Assembly: GCA_003344405.1 (NCBI GenBank)
Contig: NOWV01000111.1
Coordinates: 186,001-250,000 of the forward strand
Length of the DNA stretch: 64,000 nucleotides
Source: Trichoplax sp. H2
Lineage: Eukaryota
Reading direction: 5' to 3'
Below, in pieces: positions 4,338 through 53,822 of this stretch (the stretch's first letter is position 1; each line of letters starts with the position of its first letter). The notes beneath the pieces are model-generated. The model saw only the letters and a program-made list of their open reading frames with translations. It was not told where the DNA came from and made no database searches. The translations under genes were made by a program, and so were the position numbers.

Positions 4338-7300
4338 CTAAAATGTTAAAGCTTTGGCAATTTTCTTGCCTAAATATTGGCCAGTTCCAATGCACTGTGA
4401 ACAAACTTCAAGCGCTGCCTTGAAACATTCAGACGCCTTTAATCGATCACCAGACTGTTTGTATAACCGGCCTAAATCGTAATAGTTTCTAGCAATGGTA
4501 ACATGATATAATCCAAAGAGTCTCTTTCTAGTTTTTGCTGACTTTTGATAATATTGGATAGCATCATCGTACTTATTTTGAGCTTTAAAAAATAAAGCCA
4601 AGTTATCATATACAATTGTTGTATCGAGACTACATTGACCACGGATTTTCAATATAATTTCTAACGACTTTTCTAGATATTGACGAGCTTGCTGAAAATT
4701 GAGTTGGCAAATACTAACGTAGCCAAGATTAGTATTACCCATAGATGCTTCTAGGCTGTCTTCACCAACTAAACGAATTTTGATATCCAGCGATTTATTC
4801 AAATGATCAATTGCGTCATCAAATTTTCGCTGACAACAAAATATCATTCCAAGGCCACTATAGCTAGCGGCAGTCTTTAAGCTGTTTTCACCACAATTCG
4901 TTTTATAAATATTTAATGCCGCTTGATAATGATTTACAGCTTGATTGTATTTACCTTGCATACCATTAATATTTCCAAGACAACCGCAAATCTCAGCATA
5001 TTCCTCAGTTTGCCGTTGATTTAATTTATTAGTAATGGCTTTTGCTCGTTTAAAATAGGACGTGGCAATTTTATGCTTACCCAACGCGCAGTAAGTATTA
5101 CCAATGTAACAGTAACTTTTAACAACGGCAAGACTTCCTTCTTTACATGTTACAATTTGATTCTGTAATGCATTCCAGTGATTGTCTAGCGCTTCATCAT
5201 ATCGACCTTGGCATCTTAATATCATGCCAATATTATTATAACAATCAGCCACCAATTGACTTCGTAAACCAAATAATTTTATACTAATATCTAAAGCATC
5301 ATCGTAATGCTTTAATGCATTTTCGTATTTACCATATTGTTTTAAAATAGCGGCAATGCTATTATGAGTGATAGCAGTCCATAAGCTAACTTTTTTCAAT
5401 CGTAACTGAAATATTTTTAATGCTTTCTTATGTATTTTTAATGCACTATAGTAATCGTACATTTCACTATAAAGACAACCCAAGTTATGGCAACACACAG
5501 CATAATCGATTGTATCTTCTCCTGAATGCTTCATAACTATTTGCGTGGCCAGATCACAATAGTTAGCTGCCTCAGAAAATTGTTTAGCAGCAAAGTGGAC
5601 CAACGATAGACGATTATAAACAGCTGCGAGGTCAACATAGTGCTCATCATCTAACTGCTTCAATATACCCAAAGATGTTTTTAAGTAATCTTCAGCGTCG
5701 TTATATTTACCAAGTGCATAAGATGCTAATCCAATATAGCCTTTATATGAAGCAATATCTAGACTATGTCCACCATAATAAGAAACGTACACATCTAAGG
5801 ACTTCTTAAAGAAAGAGTTGGCTTTATTGAAGCTACCATTTAAGAAGTAAATTTTACCCAATTTACAATACAATGATGCGGTAATATTCGCTTGATGCTT
5901 GCTATCGCGTACGAATAATAAAGCTGTTTCAATATGACTAGCAATGATTTTCCAACGTTTCCAACATAATGCATCAAAGTAGTCAAGATCCATTTGTTGA
6001 TTGAAAAATTTTAAGACACTATTATCGAGAACATCCTTGGATCGAAACAAATGTTGAAGTGTTTGCTTGATAACATTAGGCATGGTATAATCACCATTGA
6101 TTTCCATCAAAATAGCATAATTGAGTAATATTTGAATTGGCTTATGTAATAACTCGGGAGAATCGGATTTATAATTGACATAGTCTTCTAACAGACTTGC
6201 GCTTAACAATTCTGATGAGCTATACATCATAAATTGCAATATAGGATTGATTAAAAACTGATGATCGGTGATCTTAGTCAGCATCATATTACATAAAGTT
6301 GCTATGTAAGGATTAAATTGATCATGTATCTGCGCATTATCTTGAGTAGCATTATTAGTATGACTGTTATGATTGTGTTGTTGATGATTACTATACAAGA
6401 TATCGACTGTAATTTTGCAAGATTCTCTTTCATATATTTCAATAAACTCTTTTAACGATAGTTGATTGACTGTCAGATAAGCTATAGTCATACGGATTGC
6501 AAGGGGTAAGTCTGTAGTTAAATCAGCAATTTTATTGGCTGAAATAGAATCGTTTTGGCCGGATAATTGTGTGATACATTGGAGCGACATATCCCTATCA
6601 AATGAAGGTATAATCATCGCGTTTGGCCAACGCACATTAGGAGTAGTAATAATGATGTTACCCTGGCCTTTAGTCGGTAGATATGGATTAAGGAGAACAT
6701 GATCAGAGGCATTATCATAAATTAGCAAATATTTAAAGTGGACATTTAATATGTCAAATGTAGCCAAGATAATTTTTTTCATAACCTGTAAATTAGTATG
6801 ATACTGATCTCGATTAATGTTAATGATTGTATCAATTAAGATATTATCGTATGTGCTAGAAGCTTGTTGATATATTTCTAGTAATCGTTGCAATCGCATC
6901 ATTTCTCGTGTGTGGGTATAGCCATGACATAGAGCACATTCATATAGATCATAGGCTAACTTGAGGATGCCATTTTGAACAGCAATCTCAGTTTCAGCAT
7001 TGAACCAATAAATAAGTTGGTATTGCTTTTGATATTGCCTAGCATAATTTAAGGCAATACAGGATTTACCACAGCCACTGATACCTTTCAAAGCTACTAG
7101 ATTGATTTTGTCTAATTTCCATATATTGGAAGAAAAACGATCGGTTATATCTTGTAATAACGAATGGCGATTTATTAAATCATTGGGTTGATTGGATGGT
7201 AGAGCGATGATAGTAGCTATTGGAAAAGTGATGGTGTGCAACAAAGGTAATTGATCAGTTACGCTGCATGATGATTTGATGGTAGGATGATCGATAGTAT

Positions 7301-8285
7301 TAAAATCTGATAAGTTATGATGTAAAAATGTTTGCATATCCAGATTACCTTGATGGAAATAATCAGAGATCCGGGTGGAATAGAATTGTTGATGATGACA
7401 TAATACATGTTTGATACTATCTTTAATTCGTTCAGACATGTTCTCAACAGTTATAATAGAGCGGCATTCTTCTAGCCATTTTTGCAATATAATATCGAAA
7501 CATCTTGAATGAGTAGCTTTTTGAATATAGGCTAAAAAGATGTCACGAAAGCCTAAATAATCTTGGCAACAATATGCTTGAATGGATTCATAACCAAAGT
7601 AAGCAATTTCTCTCATTGGATTAGTACAATGATTGGAGCGTATCAATGTTGCAAGCATATCTAAAGCAATATAGCAATTTTTAAATTGGGTATTACCAGG
7701 ATGAGATAAAATTTTCAAGTATTCAATGAGAAAGAATGAATCATTGTTTAATAAGAGTAAATCTTGATATTTATGATAGCTACGGCATAAATGGATAATA
7801 AAATCATTATGAACGTATGATTGGTCCGTAAGTAAATCCTTCATTAAGATCAATTCCATCATGATGCAGTAATAAGGTATGACTGGAGAAAGATGGCGTA
7901 TTGATTTACAAATGTGTCGATTACAATTAGCAATAGCTTGTTGTAATAGTAGGACGATATCATGGCATTGGTACCAATCTAATTGATTATGATGTAAGAG
8001 ATTATCGAGTATAATGAGACGACTACGATGTAATGTTGGATAGACCCACCAATGGGATAATGCGATGCCATTCTTGATTGATGTTACCAACATGTTGAGT
8101 AAAGTTTTGATGATACTAAGTGGACGATCGACATACACTAAACGTAGATCCCATAGTTGATGTAATAATTGAGTATGTTGTTGATGAAATTGTTGAAATG
8201 AGGATGATGGATTTTGATGGTAGAATTGGACATGATGATTGATTTGTTGCAAAATTTGAGCAACATTTTCATCCTGATTGGCCAT
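4338..8285 (-). CDS. Single-exon NB-ARC (APAF1-like STAND ATPase) protein with C-terminal TPR array, 1315 aa
   Basis: Walker A GISGCGKS (7062-7085), Walker B LLIYDNA, GNIIITT sensor motif, DLPLA (GLPLA-like), then about a dozen ~42-aa TPR repeats (A..Y.N.G......G.Y..A). N-terminal ~330 aa unassigned. Confidence 0.9.
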   Translation of the reverse strand: MANQDENVAQILQQINHHVQFYHQNPSSSFQQFHQQHTQLLHQLWDLRLVYVDRPLSIIKTLLNMLVTSIKNGIALSHWWVYPTLHRSRLIILDNLLHHNQLDWYQCHDIVLLLQQAIANCNRHICKSIRHLSPVIPYYCIMMELILMKDLLTDQSYVHNDFIIHLCRSYHKYQDLLLLNNDSFFLIEYLKILSHPGNTQFKNCYIALDMLATLIRSNHCTNPMREIAYFGYESIQAYCCQDYLGFRDIFLAYIQKATHSRCFDIILQKWLEECRSIITVENMSERIKDSIKHVLCHHQQFYSTRISDYFHQGNLDMQTFLHHNLSDFNTIDHPTIKSSCSVTDQLPLLHTITFPIATIIALPSNQPNDLINRHSLLQDITDRFSSNIWKLDKINLVALKGISGCGKSCIALNYARQYQKQYQLIYWFNAETEIAVQNGILKLAYDLYECALCHGYTHTREMMRLQRLLEIYQQASSTYDNILIDTIININRDQYHTNLQVMKKIILATFDILNVHFKYLLIYDNASDHVLLNPYLPTKGQGNIIITTPNVRWPNAMIIPSFDRDMSLQCITQLSGQNDSISANKIADLTTDLPLAIRMTIAYLTVNQLSLKEFIEIYERESCKITVDILYSNHQQHNHNSHTNNATQDNAQIHDQFNPYIATLCNMMLTKITDHQFLINPILQFMMYSSSELLSASLLEDYVNYKSDSPELLHKPIQILLNYAILMEINGDYTMPNVIKQTLQHLFRSKDVLDNSVLKFFNQQMDLDYFDALCWKRWKIIASHIETALLFVRDSKHQANITASLYCKLGKIYFLNGSFNKANSFFKKSLDVYVSYYGGHSLDIASYKGYIGLASYALGKYNDAEDYLKTSLGILKQLDDEHYVDLAAVYNRLSLVHFAAKQFSEAANYCDLATQIVMKHSGEDTIDYAVCCHNLGCLYSEMYDYYSALKIHKKALKIFQLRLKKVSLWTAITHNSIAAILKQYGKYENALKHYDDALDISIKLFGLRSQLVADCYNNIGMILRCQGRYDEALDNHWNALQNQIVTCKEGSLAVVKSYCYIGNTYCALGKHKIATSYFKRAKAITNKLNQRQTEEYAEICGCLGNINGMQGKYNQAVNHYQAALNIYKTNCGENSLKTAASYSGLGMIFCCQRKFDDAIDHLNKSLDIKIRLVGEDSLEASMGNTNLGYVSICQLNFQQARQYLEKSLEIILKIRGQCSLDTTIVYDNLALFFKAQNKYDDAIQYYQKSAKTRKRLFGLYHVTIARNYYDLGRLYKQSGDRLKASECFKAALEVCSQCIGTGQYLGKKIAKALTF

Positions 8286-9499
8286 GTTGGTCGTTGAACA
8301 TTTTTTGTTGAATGTGGTTGATTATTACTGTTGTTGTTGTTGTAATTTTTTCTAGGTCTGTTTTTCCAATCGAATTGTTGTAATAATCAAGTATTGAATA
8401 AAAAGAGTAATTTTTCCAACTTTCAATTGTCACTGCCACTTGCCGATTTGCACAATCTATTGGCAAGTTGAATAGACGATGGTCAAGGTAAAAGGTTATG
8501 TTGTCTTTCTTTCTTTCTCTTCTCTCTCTTTCTCATCCACTCACATACACACTTTGTCACTCAGTCTACTTTCCGCGACAAGATTAATTAACGCCAAGGT
8601 AAATACTTACGGTAAATACGATTCTGTTCGTCGTCGTTGACGTCGACAACAGCCAAATATTGTTGGCTTTCAACTCATGCGACAGAATGCTTCTATTCTT
8701 GATTGAACTGGAATGACTTTGCCCTCAAGCGAAACTCATGCCTATCATCACTCTTCAATCCTTCACTAACCAATACAACAACAACTTTAGATCATCAATT
8801 GGGTTATTTTGATGGGATATTTCTTACTGATCTTACCTTAACTATTCCTATCCAACGCCATAGTTTGCTCTGATGTTGACACACTGTCCGCTGGCAAGAG
8901 AAAGAAAAATCAGACTTGATTGTTTCAAAGCGCTTCTTAATTGGTGATTACCAAGTAATTTGCTGCTTGCCAGTGTATGCCTAGTACAACGCACCATTGT
9001 AACAAGCACAGTAGCAATGGCTAGCGAAAACGCCAGCCATTAATACAATGTTCAACCCTCTACTAGTCTCAATCCTATCTTGTTGTCTCTGTTTTGCGCA
9101 TCTATCTAACACGACTCTTGTTTGCCAAATGGCATCTTCTTTTGTGGTAGCAAGTTCATTCTGCGCAAGCGTAGTCCATCGTCGGTATGGTTCAATACGT
9201 CCATCTATTCTTTTCATAACAAAAGAGTTTATTAGCGTAGCGATCACATGTCTCGGTGTGTAAAGTAGATGAGGATGTATGGACAGATGGACTGGGGGAG
9301 CCCCAGCACCCAAGTCGAGTTGAAAATGAAATATGGCGATCAAAGCATCGGATTGAGCAGCAATTGCAATGCAATGGTCAAGGCCTTGCACAACCAAAGT
9401 TCCATAGTACTTCACGATTGCTTGGTGTACTCTCGTGTAGTCCATCTTTTAGTATGCAATCTGTTTTTCTTTGTATTTTGTACCCCCTTGATGCAACCC

Positions 9500-35164: not shown

Positions 35165-35637
35165 CTTTATCAGAAATGTCTTGCACCATTCTGGTTACAT
35201 AAGGTTTCATTCGCATCATTCTCTCATATCGTGCGGTGGTATTTTCTTCATATTTATGAACTTGATAGCCAATAGCCAGTCCAATCAATGTGTAAAGGAC
35301 ATGCGTTTGTGGCTCTAAAAATAAATCAAGCATGCATTAATAGAAGTTACTGGAGGCCTAGGATGATGTATTGATGCCATCAACGATAGCGGCTATTGAA
35401 CATGATGATATCCAATTGATTTTATCGTAAGCATTGGCCACTGGCTACCCGGACTGCAGTGACCATGTCGACTGTGCACACTGTACTACTGTATATACTG
35501 TATGATGATAGCAAATCAATCTCCTACAATTGAACGCATCGATAGTTACTTCGAAATAGACGATGATGTCTTAATCCATTGCTAAAGCAAGCTACCCATA
35601 TACCACCAGCGCCAAAAAAGAGAATGGTTCGCAGCAT
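35165..35637 (-). CDS. Short mitochondrial complex I accessory subunit, NDUFC2/B14.5b-like; exons 35550-35637 and 35165-35314, terminal exon not determined
   Basis: Spliced product MLRTILFFGAGGIWVACFSNGLRHHRLFRKPQTHVLYTLIGLAIGYQVHKYEENTTARYERMM...: two short TM helices with SN.LR......P..HV, as I recall for plant/protist B14.5b. Phase-1 GT-AG intron; dense ACAGT cluster upstream. Confidence 0.6.
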
Positions 35638-35752
35638 ATTCACCAAGAGAAAGAAGAAATTGAAAAAGTGGCAAGATGGCGACAGCAGCACTGGTTCAGT
35701 GGTTGCGATCAGCCTGCAGTCTAGTGCTTTGGCTTGGACAGGCCGCGTCGAG

Positions 35753-36255
35753 ACTACAGTACAGTACACTGTAGTTTGGACCTCTGTACTGTACAGTACA
35801 GTACACTGGACGCTGCACAGTACGCTACACTTTACACTGTACACTGTAGGCACTTTGAATACTGTACAGTACAGTACAGTACAGTACAGTACTGAGTACT
35901 GTACGTCGACGACTAAAAAGAATCACAGAATCTGTATGGCGTACAGTACAGTACAACCATTACCTTGATTAACCTGTACTGCTGTACAGGATGAGTACAG
36001 TACAACGGACCAATATACACTATTGTACAGTACTGTACTGTACAGTATAGTCTTCCAGAGCAGTACAGACGGTACCGTACAGTACTGTAATGTACTGTAC
36101 AGTGTACAGTGTACTGTGTCGGTGAATACACTGTGCACTGTACACTGTAAACGAGCATTCTTATAGTACACTGTATGGACTCTTTTACGCCCGTACTGGA
36201 CTCTACTGAATGGAGCAAACGTGAGCCAATGACTTTTGTACGTTGCAGTACTGCA
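35753..36255. repeat. Dense (ACAGT)n/(ACTGT)n pentamer cluster with many GTAC palindromes, upstream of the NDUFC2-like gene
   Basis: For example ACTGTACAGTACAGTACAGTACAGTACAGTACTG from 35861; dozens of TACAGT/ACTGTA words in both orientations. Confidence 0.9.
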
Positions 36256-36507
36256 CTGGATAACTCGACTAAATCATCCATTGAAAGTCGAACATGCGAC
36301 ACTCTCCAGTGATGTAGAATGCAGCTAGAAATGGCTAACCTACTGTAGGCTAGCTGACCGCTGCAAAATGGCCAGATAAACTACTGGAAAGGCAATAGTT
36401 TGGTTATCCCTGCTACGAAGTAGTCACTTCTGCCAACAATATCGGGTTGACTTTATTTTTTACCTCGGCTAACTCATCTCTTGACCGTCCATTTTCCATC
36501 AGCTGAT

Positions 36508-40174: not shown

Positions 40175-43100
40175 TTAAGATTTACTGTTGATAATCTTGT
40201 TTGTATGGCGATGCTTGTTAAAACTTTTATGATGTGCTGGAGAAGGTCGATCGATTGTGATAGAAGGAGATGTTGTAGGCTCAGAGATATTCAAGTTTAA
40301 CTTAGTATTGAAATCTAAAACAGAATCCTTCTCCTTCGAAATAGCATTCGTTTTAGTTTGGCAATTATCAAATCTTCCATTTCGCAATTTAACGGACTTG
40401 TCATACATAGCCTTTGCAGATTCATGGTTATTTTGCAACTCATAAATCGCTCCAAGATTATCGTAAGATTGGACAAGATTCATGTCATCTTTATCCAGTA
40501 ACTTTAGTTGAATTTTTAAGCACTGATGATGCATAGTAAGCGCATCTTCATATTGACCTTGCAATCGATAAACTAATCCTATATTGTTATACGATTGAGC
40601 TATTTCTAAATGATTCCCATCAGATAATATCGACTGTCGAATTTCCAACGCTAATTTATAATTTAATAAAGCATCATCGTATTTACCCATTCGATAACAC
40701 AACCATCCAATATTATCATGGCAATCAATGACATCAGCATGATTCTTTCCACTTAGATTAGATAAAATTTTTGCATATTTTTGATATGCTACTACAGCTT
40801 GGTGATATTGATGTTGTATTTGATATATTGATATTATATTCAAGTAAGCATCTAAAAGTGCAGAGTCATTTTCTGCAGCACAGTGTAGTCGAATTTGAAT
40901 TGATTTATCATACATAGACAAGGCATCATCATAACACTTCTGCACTTGATAGATTGATGCTAGATTGAAATAAAGCTCAGCACAATTCGTATTATTCTCA
41001 CCATAATGATGAATTTGAATACTGAGAGCTTGCTGATACATTTCTACAGCTTGACTATATTGACCTTGTTGATTACAGACATAAGCGATATTATTATAAG
41101 ATTGTAATAAAATAGCACTGTTATTTCCTACTACTTCCAACCTGATTTTCAAGGATTTTTGATACGTTAATAAAGCAATCTCATATTTGTTTTGTAGTTG
41201 ATATGCAGTAGCAAGATTGTTATAAGTGGTTGCAACTTCAATATTAATCTCCTCTAATAATTGCAACTGAATACGTAAACATTTTTCAAACATGGATATT
41301 GCGAGATCATATGTTTCTTGATACAGATACACTACACCAATATTATTATAAGAATCCGCTACATCGAGATGATTTTCATTATATTTTTCCAATTTTATAT
41401 TTAAGGATTGACGATGCATAGTTAAGCAGTGATGATAATCTTCTTGTAATCGATATACTAAAGCCAAGTTATTGTAGAATGTAGCAAGGCTGATATCATT
41501 TTTTCCCTTCAATTTTAATTGCATATTTAATCCTTTTTCTAAGCTTTGAATAGCTTCATCATATTGGCCAAGGGATCGATAAACTAAACCCAAACTATGA
41601 TAACTTTCGGATAATTGTTGATGGCAATTGCCTAAACGGTTTTGGCGAATTTTTAAACATTTCTGAAGTATTGTGATTGCTCGATTAAGACGACCTAATG
41701 AATAATAACTTAAACCAATATTGTAGTAACATTGAGCTATATCTAAATGGTCCTCATCTAAAATTTGTTCTCTTACTTTCAACGATTCTTGATACTGATC
41801 TAATGCTTCATCATGTTGTAACTTTGCTGAATGAATTAATCCAATATTATTATAAATTGAAGCCAAGTGAAGATTATTGGATCCAAGAGATTGCAAACAA
41901 ATATCGATCGATTTTTGATACATGGATAAGGCATTATCATATTGCTTTTGCTTGTAATAAACTAATCCCATATTATTGTACAAGCCAGCAACATCCAATT
42001 GATTAATATCAATCCTGCGATTATCTTGTATATCCATTGATTTTTGATAATATTCTAACGCTTGGTTATAATTGTCTTGTAAATAATGGATTAACGCAAT
42101 AGCACTGTAGATGATAGCAACGACTAAATCGATTCCTCCCTCAGTTTGCCGTTTTTGTCTAATGGCAAGAGCTTTTTGCAACTTATCCATAGCCTCATCA
42201 TATTTTGCAAATATCCGATAGACTAATGCCATATTATAATAGATATCAGCAACATCTAAACTATCACCACCTAATAATTTAAGTCGAATTTTCAAGCAAT
42301 CACGAAATATAGACAAGGCATCCATATGTTTACATTGTAAGTAATAGATTAATCCAATATTATTGTAAGATGCAGCGACTAATAAATTGTCATTACCAAG
42401 TAATTTTAACTTAATTTTAAGTGAACGACGATGAGTAGACAAGGCTTTGCTATATTGTCCTTGTGCTTGATAAATTAATGCAATATTATTGTAAATAGCT
42501 GCAACATGGATGCTATTTTTATCTAAAAATTTTAATTGATCATCTAGTTGTTGCTGGAGAATTTTGAATGCTTCATCATATTTTCCTTGAGATCGATAAA
42601 CAAGTGCCATATTATTATAAAATTGTAAATTGTGTATGCAAGGTCCATCTGTCATTTTATCCAGAATTTGGATACATTTTTGATAGAGTTCGATAGCTTG
42701 ATCATAATGACGTTGTAGATATTTTAACCAGCCAATACTGTTATAACATTGAGCAACAGCGTAACATGTCTCACCAATGATGACCCTATATGTGATTAAA
42801 CTTTGATCAATTAGAGCTAAAGCCTCATCATATCGACCACCATGGATATAAATATCAGCTAAAATATGATGAGATTGAGCAACATCTAGACTTTGATGGC
42901 CAAGAATTTCTTGTTGTATATTTAACGATTTCTGAATCATAATTTCGGCTTGTTCATACTTTCCCTGAAGTTGATAAGTTGTAGCAATATGATGGTAGGA
43001 ATCAGCAACCAGTAAACTCCGCTGGCCGGTAATGGAAAGATCGATATTCAACGCTTTCTGCTGAGTGCTTAGTGCATCATCTAATTTACCCTGCAATTGG

Positions 43101-43705
43101 TTGATTAATCCAATATTATGATAAGAACTGGCCAGATATAAATTTTCTTCTCCAAATAAACGACTAAAAATAGCCGAAGATTGTTGATGCATCAAGATTG
43201 CGTCTTGATTTTTGCCTTGATGGTAATAAACTAATCCGATGGCGCGATAAGTTTTAGCCATATCAAAACTACACTCAGATTGATCCTGTAAGGCTTGAGA
43301 TTGGATTTCTAACGCTTTCTCATGATTTACTAAAGCATCATGATATCGACCTTGTAAGCAACAAATACTGCCAATATTATTATAGCAGTGTGTTATAGCT
43401 ACGTTATCTTCTTCATAAACTGATTGATGGAGTTGAAATGATTGTTGATAATTTTCCATAGCCAATTGATATTTCCCCATCATACGATTAATATGTCCTC
43501 GATGATCGCAGCAATCAGCAATTTTAATTTTATCACCTAGCTTTGACGCAATCTGGTAAGATATTTCACAGTATTGCAAGGCTTCTTCAAACTTGTACTG
43601 CTTGCAATGCGTTTGCGAAATATAAATGTAGCGATCGCAAGCCGTAGAGCCTTGTAGTGAATAATCTATTACTTCACTGCCTACTTTTTTGCTGTCCCTA
43701 TCCAT
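40175..43705 (-). CDS. Single-exon TPR-repeat protein (about 26 x 42-aa repeats), 1176 aa
   Basis: Continuous 42-aa periodicity, consensus A.SYNNIG..Y..QG.Y..AL..Y.K.L.I; no ATPase or other domain seen; short disordered C-terminus. Confidence 0.9.
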   Translation of the reverse strand: MDRDSKKVGSEVIDYSLQGSTACDRYIYISQTHCKQYKFEEALQYCEISYQIASKLGDKIKIADCCDHRGHINRMMGKYQLAMENYQQSFQLHQSVYEEDNVAITHCYNNIGSICCLQGRYHDALVNHEKALEIQSQALQDQSECSFDMAKTYRAIGLVYYHQGKNQDAILMHQQSSAIFSRLFGEENLYLASSYHNIGLINQLQGKLDDALSTQQKALNIDLSITGQRSLLVADSYHHIATTYQLQGKYEQAEIMIQKSLNIQQEILGHQSLDVAQSHHILADIYIHGGRYDEALALIDQSLITYRVIIGETCYAVAQCYNSIGWLKYLQRHYDQAIELYQKCIQILDKMTDGPCIHNLQFYNNMALVYRSQGKYDEAFKILQQQLDDQLKFLDKNSIHVAAIYNNIALIYQAQGQYSKALSTHRRSLKIKLKLLGNDNLLVAASYNNIGLIYYLQCKHMDALSIFRDCLKIRLKLLGGDSLDVADIYYNMALVYRIFAKYDEAMDKLQKALAIRQKRQTEGGIDLVVAIIYSAIALIHYLQDNYNQALEYYQKSMDIQDNRRIDINQLDVAGLYNNMGLVYYKQKQYDNALSMYQKSIDICLQSLGSNNLHLASIYNNIGLIHSAKLQHDEALDQYQESLKVREQILDEDHLDIAQCYYNIGLSYYSLGRLNRAITILQKCLKIRQNRLGNCHQQLSESYHSLGLVYRSLGQYDEAIQSLEKGLNMQLKLKGKNDISLATFYNNLALVYRLQEDYHHCLTMHRQSLNIKLEKYNENHLDVADSYNNIGVVYLYQETYDLAISMFEKCLRIQLQLLEEINIEVATTYNNLATAYQLQNKYEIALLTYQKSLKIRLEVVGNNSAILLQSYNNIAYVCNQQGQYSQAVEMYQQALSIQIHHYGENNTNCAELYFNLASIYQVQKCYDDALSMYDKSIQIRLHCAAENDSALLDAYLNIISIYQIQHQYHQAVVAYQKYAKILSNLSGKNHADVIDCHDNIGWLCYRMGKYDDALLNYKLALEIRQSILSDGNHLEIAQSYNNIGLVYRLQGQYEDALTMHHQCLKIQLKLLDKDDMNLVQSYDNLGAIYELQNNHESAKAMYDKSVKLRNGRFDNCQTKTNAISKEKDSVLDFNTKLNLNISEPTTSPSITIDRPSPAHHKSFNKHRHTNKIINSKS

Positions 43706-44499
43706 AATGTTTGATTTTTCAAGGCGAAAAGCTTTCTTTAAATTTAGCTACTTTCCAATTTATAATGGGCTTAAGTCAACTTAATGGATAGCAGATAACG
43801 CATCGAGTTGAATAAGTACTTTACTGTCCTTTAGTCAAGCTGGAATAACTATTATTTTTATGTTTCAAAATAGTTTGCTAGTGCTAGTTGAGATTGATGC
43901 TGATTCTTTATACAGTACTGAATTAATTCAATATTAATTTATTAATTATAATATCTTCGATAGTAGTTAGAACTACATAAATTCAACCTTTCACGCGCTA
44001 AACTGCAACAATTGTAATAGATTCTTTAAAAATATTGATTTCAATGCTGAGGTTTTCGTATTTTCTATAGTTGTAATAATTAATTTAGATGACGGATCGT
44101 AGCAACTAAAGATGCTATTAGGTAAAGTTCTATTTCAAGGCTGATTCTTTATCATTTATCGTTGCAATTTCGGCTTATATAGCGATCGCATTGAATGCTT
44201 GAAAAATTAAAATTTAATGCCGGTGCTTTCTAAATACTTGTAAAATTTCGACCAATGATGAGTAAGCAATAGTTGAAAATATTCTGCAAAAAGAGAATTA
44301 AATTTTGTTATCGCTTAGCTGAGAAAAGTTAAACTGTAACTCGGGTTTATTTACTATCGATCACTACAGCTCTAATCTAGATATTGTTGATTACAAGATA
44401 GATCATAGCAGAATGAAATGTTGAAGTGAACATTGTGATTTAATGCTGTTGCTATCCAATAAATTAGTTTCATCGTAAGGGTATCAATGTTAAGCAACA

Positions 44500-45313: not shown

Positions 45314-46604
45314 GGTAGTGAGGATGGATGAAAAATAACTGAAGGCTAGTATGACTAATTAAAATAATATCAAGACTACAATAATATTTCCTTCATCCAC
45401 TTTGTAGCTATAGGAACACTAATATTTATTTTGCTGAGGATCAATGAAATCGACGACGAAATAATTGGCCTACAATTAGACTGTCTTTGAATTTTAATCA
45501 TGGGCATGACCTCGTCTTCTATAGGGTGTAATTGATTATGGAAACAATGCGCGGAACGAATTTAACCTATCAGGTAGTCAATGTTAATTAAATTAGCAGA
45601 AAAATCGCCATTGATTGTTGCTAGTATCCCGCTAATTTGGATAAAGAATAGATCATCATTTGAAACAATATGTCTATACAGTGGCCAAGACAAACTCTAT
45701 GCCGGTAATCCACTGTCTTATTCTTGACAATAGTATACGTATACGTAGGCAATAACAAAAATAAAATACTATAAGGATTATTTTCTTTCTACGTTAAATT
45801 CAAAACCGGCTTCTTCTTTCTTCTATTATTGTGCTGTAGTGGTTATTATCTGTTAATTGGAAAGAGTGGAGATCACGTAAATTTCTGATATGGTGTTCAT
45901 AGGTATATAAGATTTTCTTTCTAGAGTACATTTATGATAATCGAATAGACTTGATTGATTGTAATGAGTTGGCAAGTGTGGGCAAATAAATCCGAATTAT
46001 GATAACGTAATAAACCTACTTTGAATTTTCTCTACAAGTACTGATGACGGAAGAGTCGGAGTAAACTAGAGTTGATGATGGGCTTCATGAACCAAATTTT
46101 ACAACGGCGGATTGTAGAATTAAGGATAATCCTTACTCTATTGATGTAGCCACATCTACAACTATTTTGTTTACGGCCCCAAAATCATAAACATGGACAA
46201 CTTAATTGCATTATACAGTATTAGCTTACTGGACTTTATACAAGAATGAAAATCCGCTATGACTCTAAATTCATACCAAACCAAACAGCCATTGCCCCGA
46301 CAATATGACCACACTTGTCAACCACACTTTATTTTTAAATTATATTGCAGTTCCTAATGGTTAAAAACTGTCCCGTTAACGAATTTTGTTACCGTACCTC
46401 ACAATCACTTTCCTTTTTCTCCTCCTGCAAAGAGATCTCATATTGTAGATAATGCTATAATAAGTAAATAAAACAATTAAGGATTAATTAGAGATGTTTC
46501 CCCATGGAAAATACATTACTGATATTATAGTATTACCTTAAATAGCAACATAGATTTAGTTGATTACAATTACTATGCCAATAAGCGTGATCAATGTCAC
46601 CATG

Positions 46605-48299
46605 AACCGTCTATGCAGCTTAAGTAAAATTAAAACCTTCGCTAAAAATACACAGTTGACTGAAGATGGCAGACAATTTTTTGAATAGTGTGGCGTATCA
46701 TGAAGTCCTATAATTAAAGCGGACTATCATTTCACAATATAATCTATATACATAAAGTAGGAACCGATTTTTTGTGATGCCATCACAGCCAAACAGAGAG
46801 TAAGAGGGGAAAACTATGCTTACCTTTACGAAGCTGCTTTAAAATTTGGAGCGATAATGCTCGGCTACGTGGGCTGTGTACACAGATGCCATATAGATAT
46901 TCTTATGTGAAGTAATAGATTCATATATTTTGCAGAGAAATGCCGGTGTAGCCGGGTTTACACTAGCTAATAAGTCAATAAAACAATCAAGGAATAATTA
47001 GAGATTGTTACGATGCGTAAGCTCGTCCTAATTATTGAGTAATATTAAATATTGCTTGTGTGGATTGACGTTTTATTAATTGTCATTTCTTCATATAATT
47101 TGTTTAATCTTTGATTAATATGATAATGCACTAGGAGTTTCTGACGAGACTATAAAAGGCTGGTGCCTGAAGATTCCTTTTTAGTTAGTTAGTCGGTTGG
47201 ATAGTCAACTAGTTTTTCAATTGATATTTAATTGTAAGACTATAATCTTGGGTGCCAAGATTCCTTCAGTAATAAATGATAGTAAATCTCTGACTATCTC
47301 GTCTACATCATCTGTGACGCTATAATTATACCATAGTATTCGGTCGTTGGAACTGAATTATTTGGTGATATAGCTAATCTCGCCTCTTTAAGTTAGTAAG
47401 TGGCATTCTCCGCAAGGATTGGCGTGTGTAGACTACTTTGTCACTAGTGGTGTGTGACAGAGATATTTCCTCTTTGAAGTGTTAAAGTGTGTATTTCCAA
47501 GCATGGCATTTGGTAAAATCACTAAGAGCAACATTGATGTTTGATTACGACGACTTTGCCAATAATAACTGCGATCAATGTCGTCATTAACCGTCCACGT
47601 AGCTTAAGTAAAGTTAAAATCTTTGTTGGCTAAAAATTCACAGTTGGCTGAAGATAGCAGACATTTTATAGNNNNNNNNNNNNNNNNNNNNAACCGTCTA
47701 TGCAGCTTAAGTAAAATTAAAACCTTCGCTAAAAATACACAGTTGGCTGAAGATGGCAGACAATTTTTGAATAGTGTGGCGTATCATGCAGTCCTATAAT
47801 TAAAGCAGACTATCATTTCACAATATAATCTATATACATAAAGTATGAGCCGATTTTTTTGTGATGCCATCACAGCCAAACGGAGAGTAAGAGGGGAAAA
47901 TTATGCTTACCTTTACGAAGCTGCTTTAAAATTTGGAGCGATAATGATCGACTACGCGGGCTGTGTACACAGATGCCATATAGATATTCTTATGTGAAGT
48001 AATAGATTCATATATTTTGTAGAGAAATGCCGGTGTAGCCGGGTTTACACTAGCTAATAAGTCAATAAAACAATCAAGGAATAATTAGAGATATTTCCTC
48101 TTTGAAGTGTTAAAGTGTGTATTTCCAAGCATGGCATTTGGTAAAATCACTAAGAGCAACATTGATGTTTGATTACGACGACTATGCCAATAATAACTGC
48201 GATCAATGTCGTCATTAACCGTCCACGTAGCTTAAGTAAAGTTAAAATCTTTGTTGGCTAAAAATTCACAGTTGGCTGAAGATAGCAGACATTTTATAG
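46605..48299. repeat. Near-identical duplicate segments either side of a 20-N assembly gap (47672-47691): 46605-47005 = 47692-48092 and 47460-47671 = 48088-48299
   Basis: Direct alignment by eye shows only scattered SNPs; probably two alleles assembled in tandem, or a recent tandem duplication. Confidence 0.9.
47006..47459 (+). mobile_element. Solo LTR of an LTR retrotransposon (454 bp)
   Basis: Starts TGTTAC, ends GTGACA; GAGAT direct repeats at 47001-47005 and 47460-47464; TATAAAAG at 47151 and AATAAA at 47271; absent from the duplicate copy, which has a single GAGAT at 48088-48092. Confidence 0.88.
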
Positions 48300-49499
48300 A
48301 TGGCGTAGCGTATCCTGAAATCCTATGATTAAAGTCAATGATCATATATGCAAGCACTTTTAGCAACGGACGCTTACAAAAATTAAATTGACAAATACAA
48401 AACAAAGATCAATTCAAATCATAGTTATGGATAACGGGCGTTATTCCTGCTTGGAATAGAATGATTAAGGCTGTCCTTTCATACTGTACAGTCTACAGTG
48501 TAGAGCCTCACATGACAAAATGTTCTTCAATAATGTCAGCAATTTCTGATATTTTCAATATTTCTTCAATAACGACATTTTCTGTCGGTGTTAAGGATGG
48601 AAAGAATCGCCACTTGTTTATCCATTTTGATGCGACTGTTCTTTTGTATTGCACAGCTTCATCATGGCAGAATATTTGGTCATTAATGATGTTAGCAATT
48701 TCTAATATTTTCAATATTTTTTTTAATAGTAATATTTTCTGTTGATGTTGAGGATGTTAAGAGTAGTAAATTAAATGGCATTGAATGATGAATAAAATTC
48801 TAGACGCTGGAAAAGGTATACCGATTAAGCCAGCCGTAGAATATTGTACATTCTTATGCAATAGACTTATTCCTCCATCGAATTTAAGATGTTTAAAGAG
48901 TGTTCAAGTAAAACGAGCTTGTTTTTCGACCTATACAACCACTTTATACAGTTTGAAATAATAACAACAGAATACACTCTAATTTTGCATTCTATCTGTG
49001 CATCAATTTATCCGACGTTCAGTAGACGTTTATAGAGATCAGTTTGCAATTTTTCTCACTTTCTTACAATAAATATCCTCAAACAAGTCAACTTGGCATT
49101 TGAGCAAAGTGTAAGAAGAGAGCTCTAATATTAGCTTAGCACTAATAAATTATTCAAGAATGCAATAGTAAAACCAATGTAGAATCTTTTCAATTGGAAA
49201 GTAGTGTAGCATGATTGGAAATATACAGATATCTTTAGGGTATATCGCGGTATATAACTAAAGTAAAATATATTTATTTCATGTAGAATAGTCAATTATG
49301 CTAAAATAAAGTAATTGTAGATGATGACAGGTGTGAATCGATGAAATAGTGTGCTTGCACTATTTTTATGCATACTAATGAATTATCAAAAGATATACTG
49401 GTATCCTTTTTAAAATAAGGTAATTTTTATATTTTAATATAGAAAAAGGTAACTGGTATTGCCAGGCTATAAATAATGCCAGACGACATAAACTCTCTT

Positions 49500-50000: not shown

Positions 50001-50746
50001 TTTTACTCACAGTTTGCTAATTTCAACAATGCTGTTTCATGCAGAGTAGAAATGATATACTCTATCATTCCAAATTCTATCGATATTGAACGCATAACTT
50101 ATCTCTTTCTTAATTTAATAAGGAGCTGTTGTGCTATAGTTCAGCTGAGAGTAATGTAATAAATAGTTAAGGTATAAAAAGATACATTAATACCTGAACA
50201 TTAATTTCCTCTAATAAAAAGCAAGGGTTACAGTATTTGCTATTTGGATACTAGTGTAAATTGTCGATTTTCTGCTTATTATAACGACGATGATATTTAC
50301 TAGCAACGCAACAATAAGAAAAGTCAATATTTCCTCCTCTAGCTGTGCCTTAGCAACACTCTTTCCTCAGTCCCTTGTGCTATAAAGATCGTACGTAGAC
50401 TAATTCTAATTACGCAATATATCATTAGGAATGTATGATTAATTAAGCAATTAACTATAAAGTACTTCCCACTAGATAGAATAGTTTTATAGACATTTTT
50501 TAAACGTTTCAATCTTGCAGACATTCCTGTTTCACCATAAAATGGTGAATGATAATAAATACAAAATGATCGGAGTTTAGAAGAAATGCTAAATAAAAAT
50601 TTTTTTCTATTCATAAATATCAATAAATAGTCCTAAACGAGATAGGATAGAAATCTACAGGAAATGCCAAATGAGATTTTGGTCTTTTAGTGGCATAAGT
50701 AAGGAAATGCTTAAACAAAGCATGATGAAACTGTACAAGAAATCGT

Positions 50747-51016
50747 CGTACAGTCTAGTACTGTACAGTACTGTATGAGCTATTTGCCATTTGTCGGAAA
50801 TTATCTTCGGACGGACGCTAAATATCTCAAAATGAAAACGCTAGCTACAGTACAAAAAATACTCTGGAGTACAGTACAGTGCTGTACAGTACAGTACTGT
50901 AAGGTACAGATGAACGTGTACTGTACTGTACTGTACAGTAGTTGACAGACAGTAGGGTTTTGTGCACTGTAGCGTACAGTTCAAAGTACTGTACGTGTAC
51001 AGTACTGTATACTGTA
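50747..51016. promoter_or_regulatory. ACAGT/TACTG cluster directly upstream of RBM41
   Basis: TAGTACTGTACAGTACTGTA, GTACAGTACAGTGCTGTACAGTACAGTACTGTA, GTACTGTACTGTACTGTACAGTA; ends about 100 nt before the ATG. Regulatory role is inferred only from position. Confidence 0.6.
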
Positions 51017-51121
51017 GCTTACGGAGGGTAAAATCAATTCATCAACAAACTCGCCAACTCACAACAATTTCCACCTTGATTTGTACAAGTAAATGATTAT
51101 TTCATCATCAATGCTAACAAA

Positions 51122-53822
51122 ATGGTTGGAGGATCAGGTGAGTGATAGTCATAGTTGTCGAATTGAAATGGCTACGTCAAAATAGTGTATTTGATTGAGT
51201 ACGACAGTGCTTGGACAAAACTATTTGACGACTGGTGAAGAAGTACAGGTACTGTGCTGTAATGACCATAGACCTTCATTCGTACAAGCATTTTGCAAAT
51301 CGGTGTAGTCCCTTCGACAGGAATAGACTAGTACAGCATGCTCACAATGATCAAGGTTGCGATTCTACATGCGTAAACCTGAAATGTTGAAAATGCTTAG
51401 CAAAGGCCTCCATGCAACACGTCTAGTTACTTACAATACTCAATTTGGAATGGAGTTGATTGCCTATACTGTAGGTTACTGCAAGTGGATGATTGATTGC
51501 TTATTTACAGTAACAAAAACAATCCAAGTCATCCTTGGAGCCAACCAATATTGCAATATACCCATCGATAGTAGAAGTCATCTCGTTTTTAGAAACTCAC
51601 TTTGCATCACCAATCTATTCACAATTAACACATCTCTATACTTTTATCATTACTACAGTGAGCGGTAAACCTTTCCGAGAAGATCCAACATCCTACGCAA
51701 AAACCGGCATTCCATGGTAAGTACAGTAGATTGCAATGGAAATGACTGCTAGTTATGCCTAGACATAGAACAGTACATCATACTGTAATAATTTACCCTA
51801 GCATAGTCAATACATACAAGGACTGTATAGGTGACGTTATAAAAAAATGAAATCAGATACTAGTCGTTCATGAAGAAGCATAATGTTAGTGATATGCAAG
51901 ATATCGCTATAAAATTGGACTTACTGTAAGTACCTTATTTTACTCATCATGATCCTTGATACGTGCATTCTTTAAAGTGGTCATCCTACGCGATATAAAA
52001 GCCGGGGGGTAATTCGCTTGATTCGCGATTCTTCAACACCATATGAAGATCAGCGGATTGAAGCTCCTCCCAATGATAACGTTGAATCAGAAACCGATAA
52101 ACTCCTACATGATTTACTGGAAAAGCAATTAAGTAAGTCCGTCGACGTCAAAAGGTAAGCCATTCTACATGCATGCGATTGTAAACATTAGCTGGTTAAA
52201 TGCTCTCAAATGGAAGATGATAGTAATCGAATACTAATCATACTCATTTTGCCAAATTCTTATACATCATGATGGCAGGCAACGTAGGGATTTTGTCGGT
52301 GGAACAGTCGTTGATAATGCTCAGGGAGAATTTAGCGGACAATTATCTTTGGATCAATATAAAGTAAAATCGTCAATAAATGACCAAACTAATTTTTTAA
52401 GAAATCAAGGCTTAGATGAAGAGGAGATAAGGTACCAAGCAATGTGCATACCGGATTATCATAAGTGATACTCATTCATTCTTACAATTGTAGATGGAAA
52501 ATAGAAGATAACATAGAGTCACAATTTCAGTCAACAAAGCGGAAAAGATACGGTACTGATCCAAGCATAGCTAGAGACAGGCTAGAAAATATCGAACGCA
52601 AGATAATTAAAAAAGAGTCAATGCTGGCACATCCTGATAGTTTTACCAATGCTAAACCAATGAATAGGTGAAAATTAAGCATTATCAGAAGGATGGACCA
52701 AAATTATATAATATTAATGTGAAATGGATATCATCCGATTCTTAAATTTCTACATTGCTGTATGTTGCAGGCAGTTAATGGATATTGAAAAATCAATCAA
52801 TCGCGGTACAGAGAAGGCGACAATGTTCAGTCATCTTTTAAGACCAGAAAGTATTGAATCAAATGCAATATTACAAGCTACAGTGGATAACGTGAACCAT
52901 TCTATAAGCACTACTGATGGTAACAATTCCAATAGCAAGTGCAAAGAATTGAACGACGAGGAAACAAGATTACCCGTATCTTCTGAAATTGACGATGCAA
53001 CGTGCAAAGTAGAAATTACTATTGATCAACCGAGTAGTTCTCCATCTACTAAAGACGAAACAAGGCAAGAATATTACATTGTATGACTCACTAAAGCTTC
53101 AGAGAATTATTTTTTATAAAGCAAAACGACAACGAGTACTTTCTGTCTTCAAATATGCTATACCATACCATGGCTGAATATTTAGACTGTATAGACATAC
53201 AACTGTTGATCAAGTTATTTTATTTACTCCAATATAGAACTAAGGGAATAAATTACGGTACTGGTACCTTGCGTGATAATTTGCAAGCAGTAAAAGCAGA
53301 AGATATTATCAAGAATAGAATAACTATTGAGGAAATAAGAGCTATGGCAAGATTTGCTCATTATGAGCAGGGAGAACCTTCTAAGGTACTAATCTATTTC
53401 CCCATATAACTTACTTTATTCATATAATATTCCGTAGTTAAAGCATTGACGTCTATATAAAATTTGGGCAATTGTAGGTGCTCTACATCAAAAATTTAAG
53501 TGATAAAGTCAATGAGAAAGATTTAGTCATGACCTTTATAGGATTTCAAGAAGACAGTAAAGATAATATCCGATTTCGGTTAATGAAAGGCAAAATGAAA
53601 GGTCAAGCGTTCGTAACATTTTCAGGTATAACGATAGACACTACTCATTCATGACGTATTAAACTCTGATTATCTTTATAAAATCTTATTTGATTACATT
53701 CCGTAATAATGTCAAACCTATCAAAATTAGATGTAGCTACTGCGGGGAAAGCACTAGATTTAGTAAATGGATATAAGCTGAAAGGGAAGCCCATGGTTAT
53801 ACAATACGGGAAGAAATCATAA
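51122..53822 (+). CDS. RBM41: RNA-binding motif protein 41 (paralogue of U11/U12-65K/RNPC3); exons 51122-51137, 51659-51716, 51978-52154, 52279-52431, 52494-52667, 52771-53064 (or 53080), 53238 (or 53245)-53385, 53478-53625, 53731-53822
   Basis: N-region VESETDKLLHDLLEKQL...LRNQGLDEEEI...PDSFTNAKPMNRQLMDIEKSI and single C-terminal RRM GEPSKVLYIKNL...MKGQAFVTF...VNGYKLKGKPMVIQYGK match RBM41 as I recall it. First two short exons less certain. Confidence 0.88.

Follow-up and report, generated by a model that had tools for sequence, protein, structure and literature searches.

We have found that a 454-bp block in the genome of Trichoplax sp. H2 is in all likelihood a single long terminal repeat (LTR) inserted into one of two haplotypes, and that it belongs to a dispersed family in which most complete copies have lost part of their interior, for the most part each in its own way. 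The conventional account of such a copy is that a Gypsy-type element was inserted by an integrase, with its U3 already shortened by a template switch, and later lost its interior by LTR-LTR recombination; we give this chain as a whole a probability of about one half, and parts of the family-level pattern fit it poorly. The window referred to throughout is the whole stretch of DNA analysed, 64,000 nucleotides of contig NOWV01000111.1 (assembly GCA_003344405.1, positions 186,001 to 250,000, forward strand), with positions counted from its first letter.

Results

The insertion site and its two haplotypes

The features of the locus are given in Table 1. These coordinates confirm the central observation of a preliminary description of this DNA, that a TG...CA block lies between two copies of GAGAT in one sequence where its near-identical neighbour has a single GAGAT. 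The block begins with TGTTAC and ends with GTGACA, with five of the six bases complementary, and beyond this imperfect 6-bp inverted repeat nothing longer was found. That the two sequences differ by exactly one block was too strict a statement, as the left flanks are also set apart by 11 substitutions and two 1-bp indels, and 1 of the 212 bp compared is substituted between the right flanks.

Table 1 Features of the insertion locus (window positions)
Feature	Position	Strand	Remarks
Left flank, filled haplotype	46605-47005		96.8% identical to 47692-48092; half-depth allele bubbles
Target-site duplication GAGAT, left copy	47001-47005	+	
Single LTR, 454 bp, TG...CA	47006-47459	+	Deleted form of the 674-679 bp family LTR
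Left piece (U3 tip)	47006-47132	+	Equivalent to positions 1-133 of L021, the longest of the young copies
Right piece (distal U3, R, U5)	47133-47459	+	From position 353 of the longest copy
TATA-like box TATAAAAG	47151-47158	+	Sequence motif, putative function
Polyadenylation-signal-like AATAAA	47271-47276	+	Sequence motif, putative function
Target-site duplication GAGAT, right copy	47460-47464	+	
Right flank, filled haplotype	47460-47671		211/212 identical to 48088-48299
20-N scaffold gap	47672-47691		Assembler's tandem join of both haplotypes
Empty haplotype of the same locus	47692-48299		
Single GAGAT	48088-48092	+	Unoccupied target site

Contigs from four sequencing runs were aligned to 46300-47671 to obtain allele depths. 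In run X1 the two versions of the flank appear as bubbles with depths of 34/35 and 36/30, compared with 56-62 for unique sequence, and in runs X2 and X7 the same two versions are found at 15-28 against 30-40. Since each branch has about half the depth of unique sequence, the two versions are haplotypes; a tandem duplicate would put each branch at full depth. The block-free join across the insertion site is present in all four runs. The X1 contigs stop at 47459, which fits a filled allele; the filled junctions themselves were not among the contigs listed. A contig of two runs labelled organism B spans the site without the block; contigs cannot prove the absence of an insertion.

The second copy, which had been taken for an adjacent duplicate, is therefore the other allele, and the assembly renders the two alleles in tandem. 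The same arrangement of filled and empty alleles around an N gap is seen at 26 loci of the family (25 after repeated rows and rows without a gap were dropped, plus L088), and at 25 of the 26 the empty site has the target 5-mer once. The remaining locus (L053:812-1300) is the only one whose empty allele has the 5-mer doubled, which might be an excision footprint or a pre-existing tandem; the right end of its filled allele is hidden in the gap. The nearest relative of the window copy differs from it by 1 base in 317 bp, which supports a recent insertion, and both the recency and the heterozygosity proposed in the preliminary description are thus borne out.

The window copy has lost 219 bp of U3 (positions 134-352 of the longest form) at a blunt junction between 47132 and 47133, and the description of its promoter as intact is accordingly weakened. 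The TATA-like box is kept, with the poly(A)-like signal 120 bp downstream, and this order of motifs is that of U3-R-U5.

The insertion site looks intergenic from the predicted reading frames. On the minus strand, position 43747 is the end of a TPR gene, and among same-strand frames with a Pfam match the closest is an RRM exon at 53478; any effect of the LTR on genes would be speculation. The TPR gene (40175-43747, minus strand) encodes a long single-frame protein confirmed by Pfam, and at 4338-8321, also on the minus strand, there is a further long single-frame predicted TPR protein with a P-loop-like stretch before its TPR-like repeats. An older tandem unit of ~510-530 bp surrounds the insertion site (46458-46719 compared with 48055-48334, 74-79%), and the flank at 46730-46990 and 47815-48070 holds part of another dispersed repeat with 29 matches on other contigs (71-91%). 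This repeat ends with a short hairpin near CTAG, which may resemble the 3' end of a Helitron. Dense ACAGT-type repeats, a motif described in PMC2871265, lie at 50730-51100 and 35500-36400.

A family of related copies

A search of the 94.9-Mb assembly with the block gave at least 59 matches (189 candidates, 40 scored). A pol protein encoded on another contig of this assembly matches a protein recorded as Trichoplax without a difference over 773 aa, in keeping with a placozoan host. The exact termini occur 56 times for the 5' end and 75 times for the 3' end, with 0 for each reversed control, so that the block is not a chance sequence, and the family is estimated at about 100 or more copies in the Trichoplax genome. 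A lack of other copies, together with the block at all orthologous loci, had been named as the finding that would favour a deletion in the second sequence; instead many copies exist, and every run has the empty site. The longest form of the family is 674-679 bp and some copies cannot be distinguished from each other. Contig depths added up over the LTR do not amount to a copy number and did not enter this estimate.

At 50 of 100 distinct 3' ends in the fetched loci the 5-bp duplication is exact, and at none of these 50 does it extend to 6 bp. The other ends comprise 5 with one mismatch, 4 with no duplication, 25 for which a 5' end was not recognised and 16 that fall at a gap or an edge; the 100 include a few old copies that are nested and one copy counted twice over a gap. 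Insertion of the integrase type, with a duplication of 5 bp, as put forward for the window copy, is supported. Neither a primer site nor a polypurine tract was found beside family copies at any of the 100 ends, two ends flagged by a loose primer-site pattern being target duplications. Genome-wide, the family end followed by TGG gave 5 matches against 6 in the control, with no primer site among them. An Rfam search with L001, L048 and L166 returned 0 matches at E<=0.5.

A second solo-like family (L166:989-1589 and relatives, 601 bp, 36 matches) is mostly full length and has 5-bp duplications, and it contains an internal motif resembling an LTR end and primer site. Copies of the family studied here are nested inside it at L080, L089 and L047. 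The idea that the second family might be 5'-deleted too was dropped, as its apparent truncations are N gaps, and no internal deletions of the kind described below were found in it.

Internal deletions

Of the complete, gap-free, duplication-flanked copies, 50/53 are shorter by at least 60 bp, and the other 3 are approximately full length; three copies scored as full in one alignment and deleted in another were counted as deleted. The junction caller was given 64 copies and called 62, from which 21 blurred by nearby substitutions were dropped, leaving 41 clean. These include 37 distinct junctions. The overlap is 0-1 nt in 25 and 2-5 nt in 8, with a filler of 1-3 nt in the other 8, and strong microhomology was rejected since most clean junctions have only 0-1 nt; the higher mean overlap of a looser alignment is due to three long overlaps. 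The left ends of the deletions cluster at ~5, 15, 26-32, 54-62 and 107-136 and the right starts at ~316, 350-358, 387-393, 468-477 and 530, and the left and right hotspot classes combine freely.

The bases at the junctions are biased. The last deleted base is C in 24/37 distinct junctions (matched null 0.205) and the first deleted base is G in 17/37 (null 0.194). Counted once per site, the figures are 10/20 (p=0.003) and 9/22 (p=0.017), respectively, values to be read in the light of the bias having been noticed in the same data before testing and of the junctions not being independent. The bias is symmetric between the strands and would thus follow from one rule, that each strand growing inward stops before G. 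Copies without a left end start right after C in 11/18 cases, at the same right-hand hotspots; these 18 were hand-picked, leaving out old nested copies and copies whose end is merely mutated. Many of the copies without a left end also have no target duplication, and across the family the left endpoints run in a continuum from 134 nt to 0 and then into the flank.

Copies that are identical over ~282 bp may differ in structure, as is seen for L021 (full), L013 and L024 and again for L068 and L071, while four full-length copies are 2.8-5.3% from their nearest neighbour. This comparison covered 68 copies over ~282 bp and is an incomplete sample in which gene conversion is possible. These alignments show that the deletions arise copy by copy, and they are mostly private and blunt even among copies otherwise identical. 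One junction, joining position 27 to position 388, is shared by copies at separate sites that have 0-2 differences.

Three structures extend beyond a single LTR. In a minus-strand copy at L008, the join between a short left piece and a second LTR falls exactly at base 1 of the latter. In the sister element L161, an LTR, its primer site and the start of gag are joined to the middle of a second LTR. In a sister-family copy at L171 (minus strand, near 1505), the LTR end continues into a primer site for exactly 18 nt, beyond which the DNA is unrelated; this is like a plus-strand strong-stop product. Two other sources of the deletions were considered and rejected. A hairpin in U3 as a fragile site finds no support, the U3 core folding no better than shuffles (z -0.42), and splicing misfits because the inspected junctions do not follow GT-AG, the AG being retained in the window copy.

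Kind of element and search for a parent

The reading of the family as LTRs draws on the order of the motifs, on sister ends with a primer site and on locus L063. Nine sister LTR ends, from other families of the same genome, have the same TGACA end followed by a primer site that matches two tRNA-Leu genes. All 28 matches to the primer-site pattern were examined, and the others were the internal motif of the second family (17) and chance (2). One sister LTR, on contig C754, leads into gag-protease and then a pol with integrase before RT-RNase H, and two homologues of this pol with a SCAN-gag have the same order; integrase upstream of RT marks Gmr1 elements (PMC8220671). The C754 LTR has no blastn match to the family LTR, and since it is a different LTR this element is a relative of the family and not its parent. 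The C754 element (L106, G000:C754) takes up the whole 5,124-bp contig, with its own LTR, a tRNA-Leu primer site, a gag-protease frame of 516 aa and pol. No stop was seen apart from two N gaps, and it is apparently open, which conflicts with published statements that Trichoplax has no functional LTR element.

At L063 a family 5' end leads into a scrap of integrase followed by one of RNase H, both ~65% identical to the C754 pol. This single-copy, Gypsy-type sequence is the only coding scrap attached to the family, and a protein search for a close parent of its integrase part gave none above ~70% identity. Two inverted family 5' ends enclose the scraps (L063:858-1451) with unlike flanking 5-mers, and the locus may be a rearrangement between two insertions or joined cDNA pieces. 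The family is thus probably Gypsy with a Gmr1-type domain order rather than BEL/Pao or copia, the groups for which the preliminary description called 5-bp duplications typical. This affinity is indirect, coming from the order of domains at this one chimeric locus and from the sister LTRs with a tRNA-Leu primer site.

In the search for a parent, none of 15 RT-RNase H regions and none of 5 integrase-bearing stretches had the family LTR joined to coding sequence. No interior of the family was found apart from L063 in this short-read assembly, of a type that can lose repeated interiors. Paired LTRs flanking gag-pol, the suggested check, were not found in the assembly with the family LTR, and the apparent pair at L161 is a haplotype duplication of its flank. 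At L159 an RNase H scrap and an old family copy are ~4 kb apart. Fragments of RT-RNase H that stand alone, with neither integrase nor LTR, occur at L147, L148, L146 and L150; two of these are near-identical and lie between direct repeats of 45-48 bp. L107 (G000:C546) has an integrase and further long frames that look Polinton-like by eye.

Discussion

Origin of the single LTR

The window locus by itself is an ordinary polymorphic LTR insertion. On the conventional account, an LTR-type integrase would have made a 5-bp staggered cut at GAGAT and inserted a two-LTR cDNA into one haplotype, the U3 being already short by 219 bp through a non-homologous template switch during reverse transcription, and recombination between the identical LTRs would later have removed the interior. 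The recurrence of the junction joining 27 to 388 at separate sites is what the copying of an already deleted LTR from a parent would produce. The second family of full-length solo-like copies also counts for this route, there are known families of which nothing but solo LTRs survives (PMC10886601), and the solo-LTR ratios of yeast (PMC2939329) are a precedent. LTR-LTR recombination had been called established, but no family copy with two LTRs or with a flanking primer site or polypurine tract was found, even among indistinguishable young insertions. Zero-difference copies with different structures would all need very fast recombination, and a template switch before integration does not explain why one-ended copies start at the same right hotspots.

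These difficulties make it possible, if doubtful, that the copies were never part of an integrated two-LTR element and that LTR-only cDNA was integrated directly. A minus strand begun from the U5 end and a plus strand begun from the U3 end would both halt early, preferentially before G, and the two early-stopped strands would be joined end to end, giving a one-LTR molecule for integrase to insert; where the left piece was missing, only the U5 end would be integrated and the host would repair the other side. The largely distinct clean junctions (37/41) with little overlap or a short filler, the strand-symmetric C/G bias, the freely combining hotspots and the right hotspots common to one-ended copies all agree with such a process, as do the L008 piece and the LTR with its 18-nt primer site at L171. 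Direct integration would account for the absence of primer-site-flanked copies, for the one-ended copies and for the persistence of older full-length copies beside zero-distance copies that are differently deleted. For retroviruses there are documented cases of one-ended integration completed by repair on the part of the host (PMC5041404), and for Tf1 an insertion independent of integrase, via primer-derived ends, has been described (PMC11042837). Against it, the process is deduced from genomic copies and not from an observed cDNA, the base bias carries the reservations given above with 21/62 calls dropped, the second family is without such deletions, a short-read assembly can lose repeated interiors, and no paper was found describing integration of LTR-only cDNA. 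Alternatively, the host might have deleted the sequence after insertion, through a break in the AT-rich U3 (79% AT) or in a two-LTR element that was trimmed on both sides and bluntly joined, sometimes into the flank. The continuum of left endpoints into the flank and the fused sister element at L161 would suit this, but we think it unlikely, as older full-length copies are intact while identical young ones are already deleted, the U3 core folds no better than shuffles, and breaks falling at random in a two-LTR element would be expected to leave remnants of the primer site, of which none was seen in the family.

A non-autonomous cut-and-paste DNA transposon of the Ginger/TDD type, with a deletion series from gap repair, would explain why all copies are single units with nested deletions, and perhaps the doubled 5-mer at L053. 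Ginger is reported to be the main class of DNA transposon in Trichoplax (PMC6057997), and Ginger1/Ginger2, which are integrase-related, share TGT...ACA ends with the present family, TDD-4/5 making 5-bp duplications (PMC2836005). The same source gives Ginger inverted repeats of 40-270 bp and animal duplications of 4 bp, compared with an inverted repeat of only 6 bp here. Together with the single 5-mer at 25/26 empty sites, and with the TATA/poly(A) order and the tRNA primer sites of sister ends that point to LTRs, this makes such an origin very improbable. A true tandem duplication that lost the block from its second copy by microhomology deletion might take some encouragement from the older tandem unit in the flank. 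It is scarcely credible given branch depths of about half, and not equal to, the single-copy depth and a block that is a dispersed family with its own target duplication at each site.

Comparison with known systems

In their TG...CA ends, 5-bp duplication and TATA box followed by a poly(A) signal, the copies are like solo LTRs of Ty3/Gypsy, Ty1/copia and BEL/Pao, such as yeast delta (PMC2939329), and like these they have no coding sequence and are polymorphic for presence and absence. Unlike usual solo LTRs, they have no parent that could be found, nearly every copy has a private, blunt deletion of U3(-R-U5) with base-biased ends, and about a quarter have no recognisable left end. The likeness to Gmr1 Gypsy elements (PMC8220671) is the placing of integrase before RT/RNase H in C754 and the L063 scrap, with the qualification that the C754 LTR differs from that of the family. 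The one-ended copies recall aberrant retroviral integration in ASLV and HIV-1 (PMC5041404), in which one end is precise and the other is truncated and fused with DNA of the host or the virus; those cases concern full proviruses in which an end or the integrase was mutated or a drug was used, and not a natural LTR-only family. TRIMs, including Helenus and Ajax (PMC10886601), are likewise non-coding, and some TRIM families are found only as solo LTRs with 5-bp duplications, whereas the present family is without paired LTRs around a primer site and polypurine tract and has no Rfam (small-RNA) match.

Implications

Wang et al. describe the elements of Trichoplax as inactive and few in number and report that none is a true multi-copy LTR element, and the words 'solo' and 'Gmr1' are absent from the available text (PMC2871265). 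Kamm et al. put repeats at 6.6%, most of them unclassified, and see no significant activity at present (PMC6057997), and the placozoan elements of Kim et al. are Mutator elements and not the present LTR family (PMC12221973). We found no description of the family or of LTR-only integration in the literature searched, which took in few subscription papers, and the family may already be listed in Repbase, Dfam or published placozoan repeat libraries. Against this published picture of few, inactive transposons stand a family of about 100 or more copies, of which some are indistinguishable, with filled and empty alleles at 26 loci, and the apparently open Gmr1-type element on contig C754.

Solo LTRs are routinely read as scars of recombination, and ratios of solo to full elements are used to gauge DNA removal. 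If LTR-only cDNA integrates directly, that reading would fail for families of this kind, a question that the catalogue of junctions makes testable. Were it so, an LTR family would be spreading as a MITE-like unit in an animal whose transposons are all reported to be inactive.
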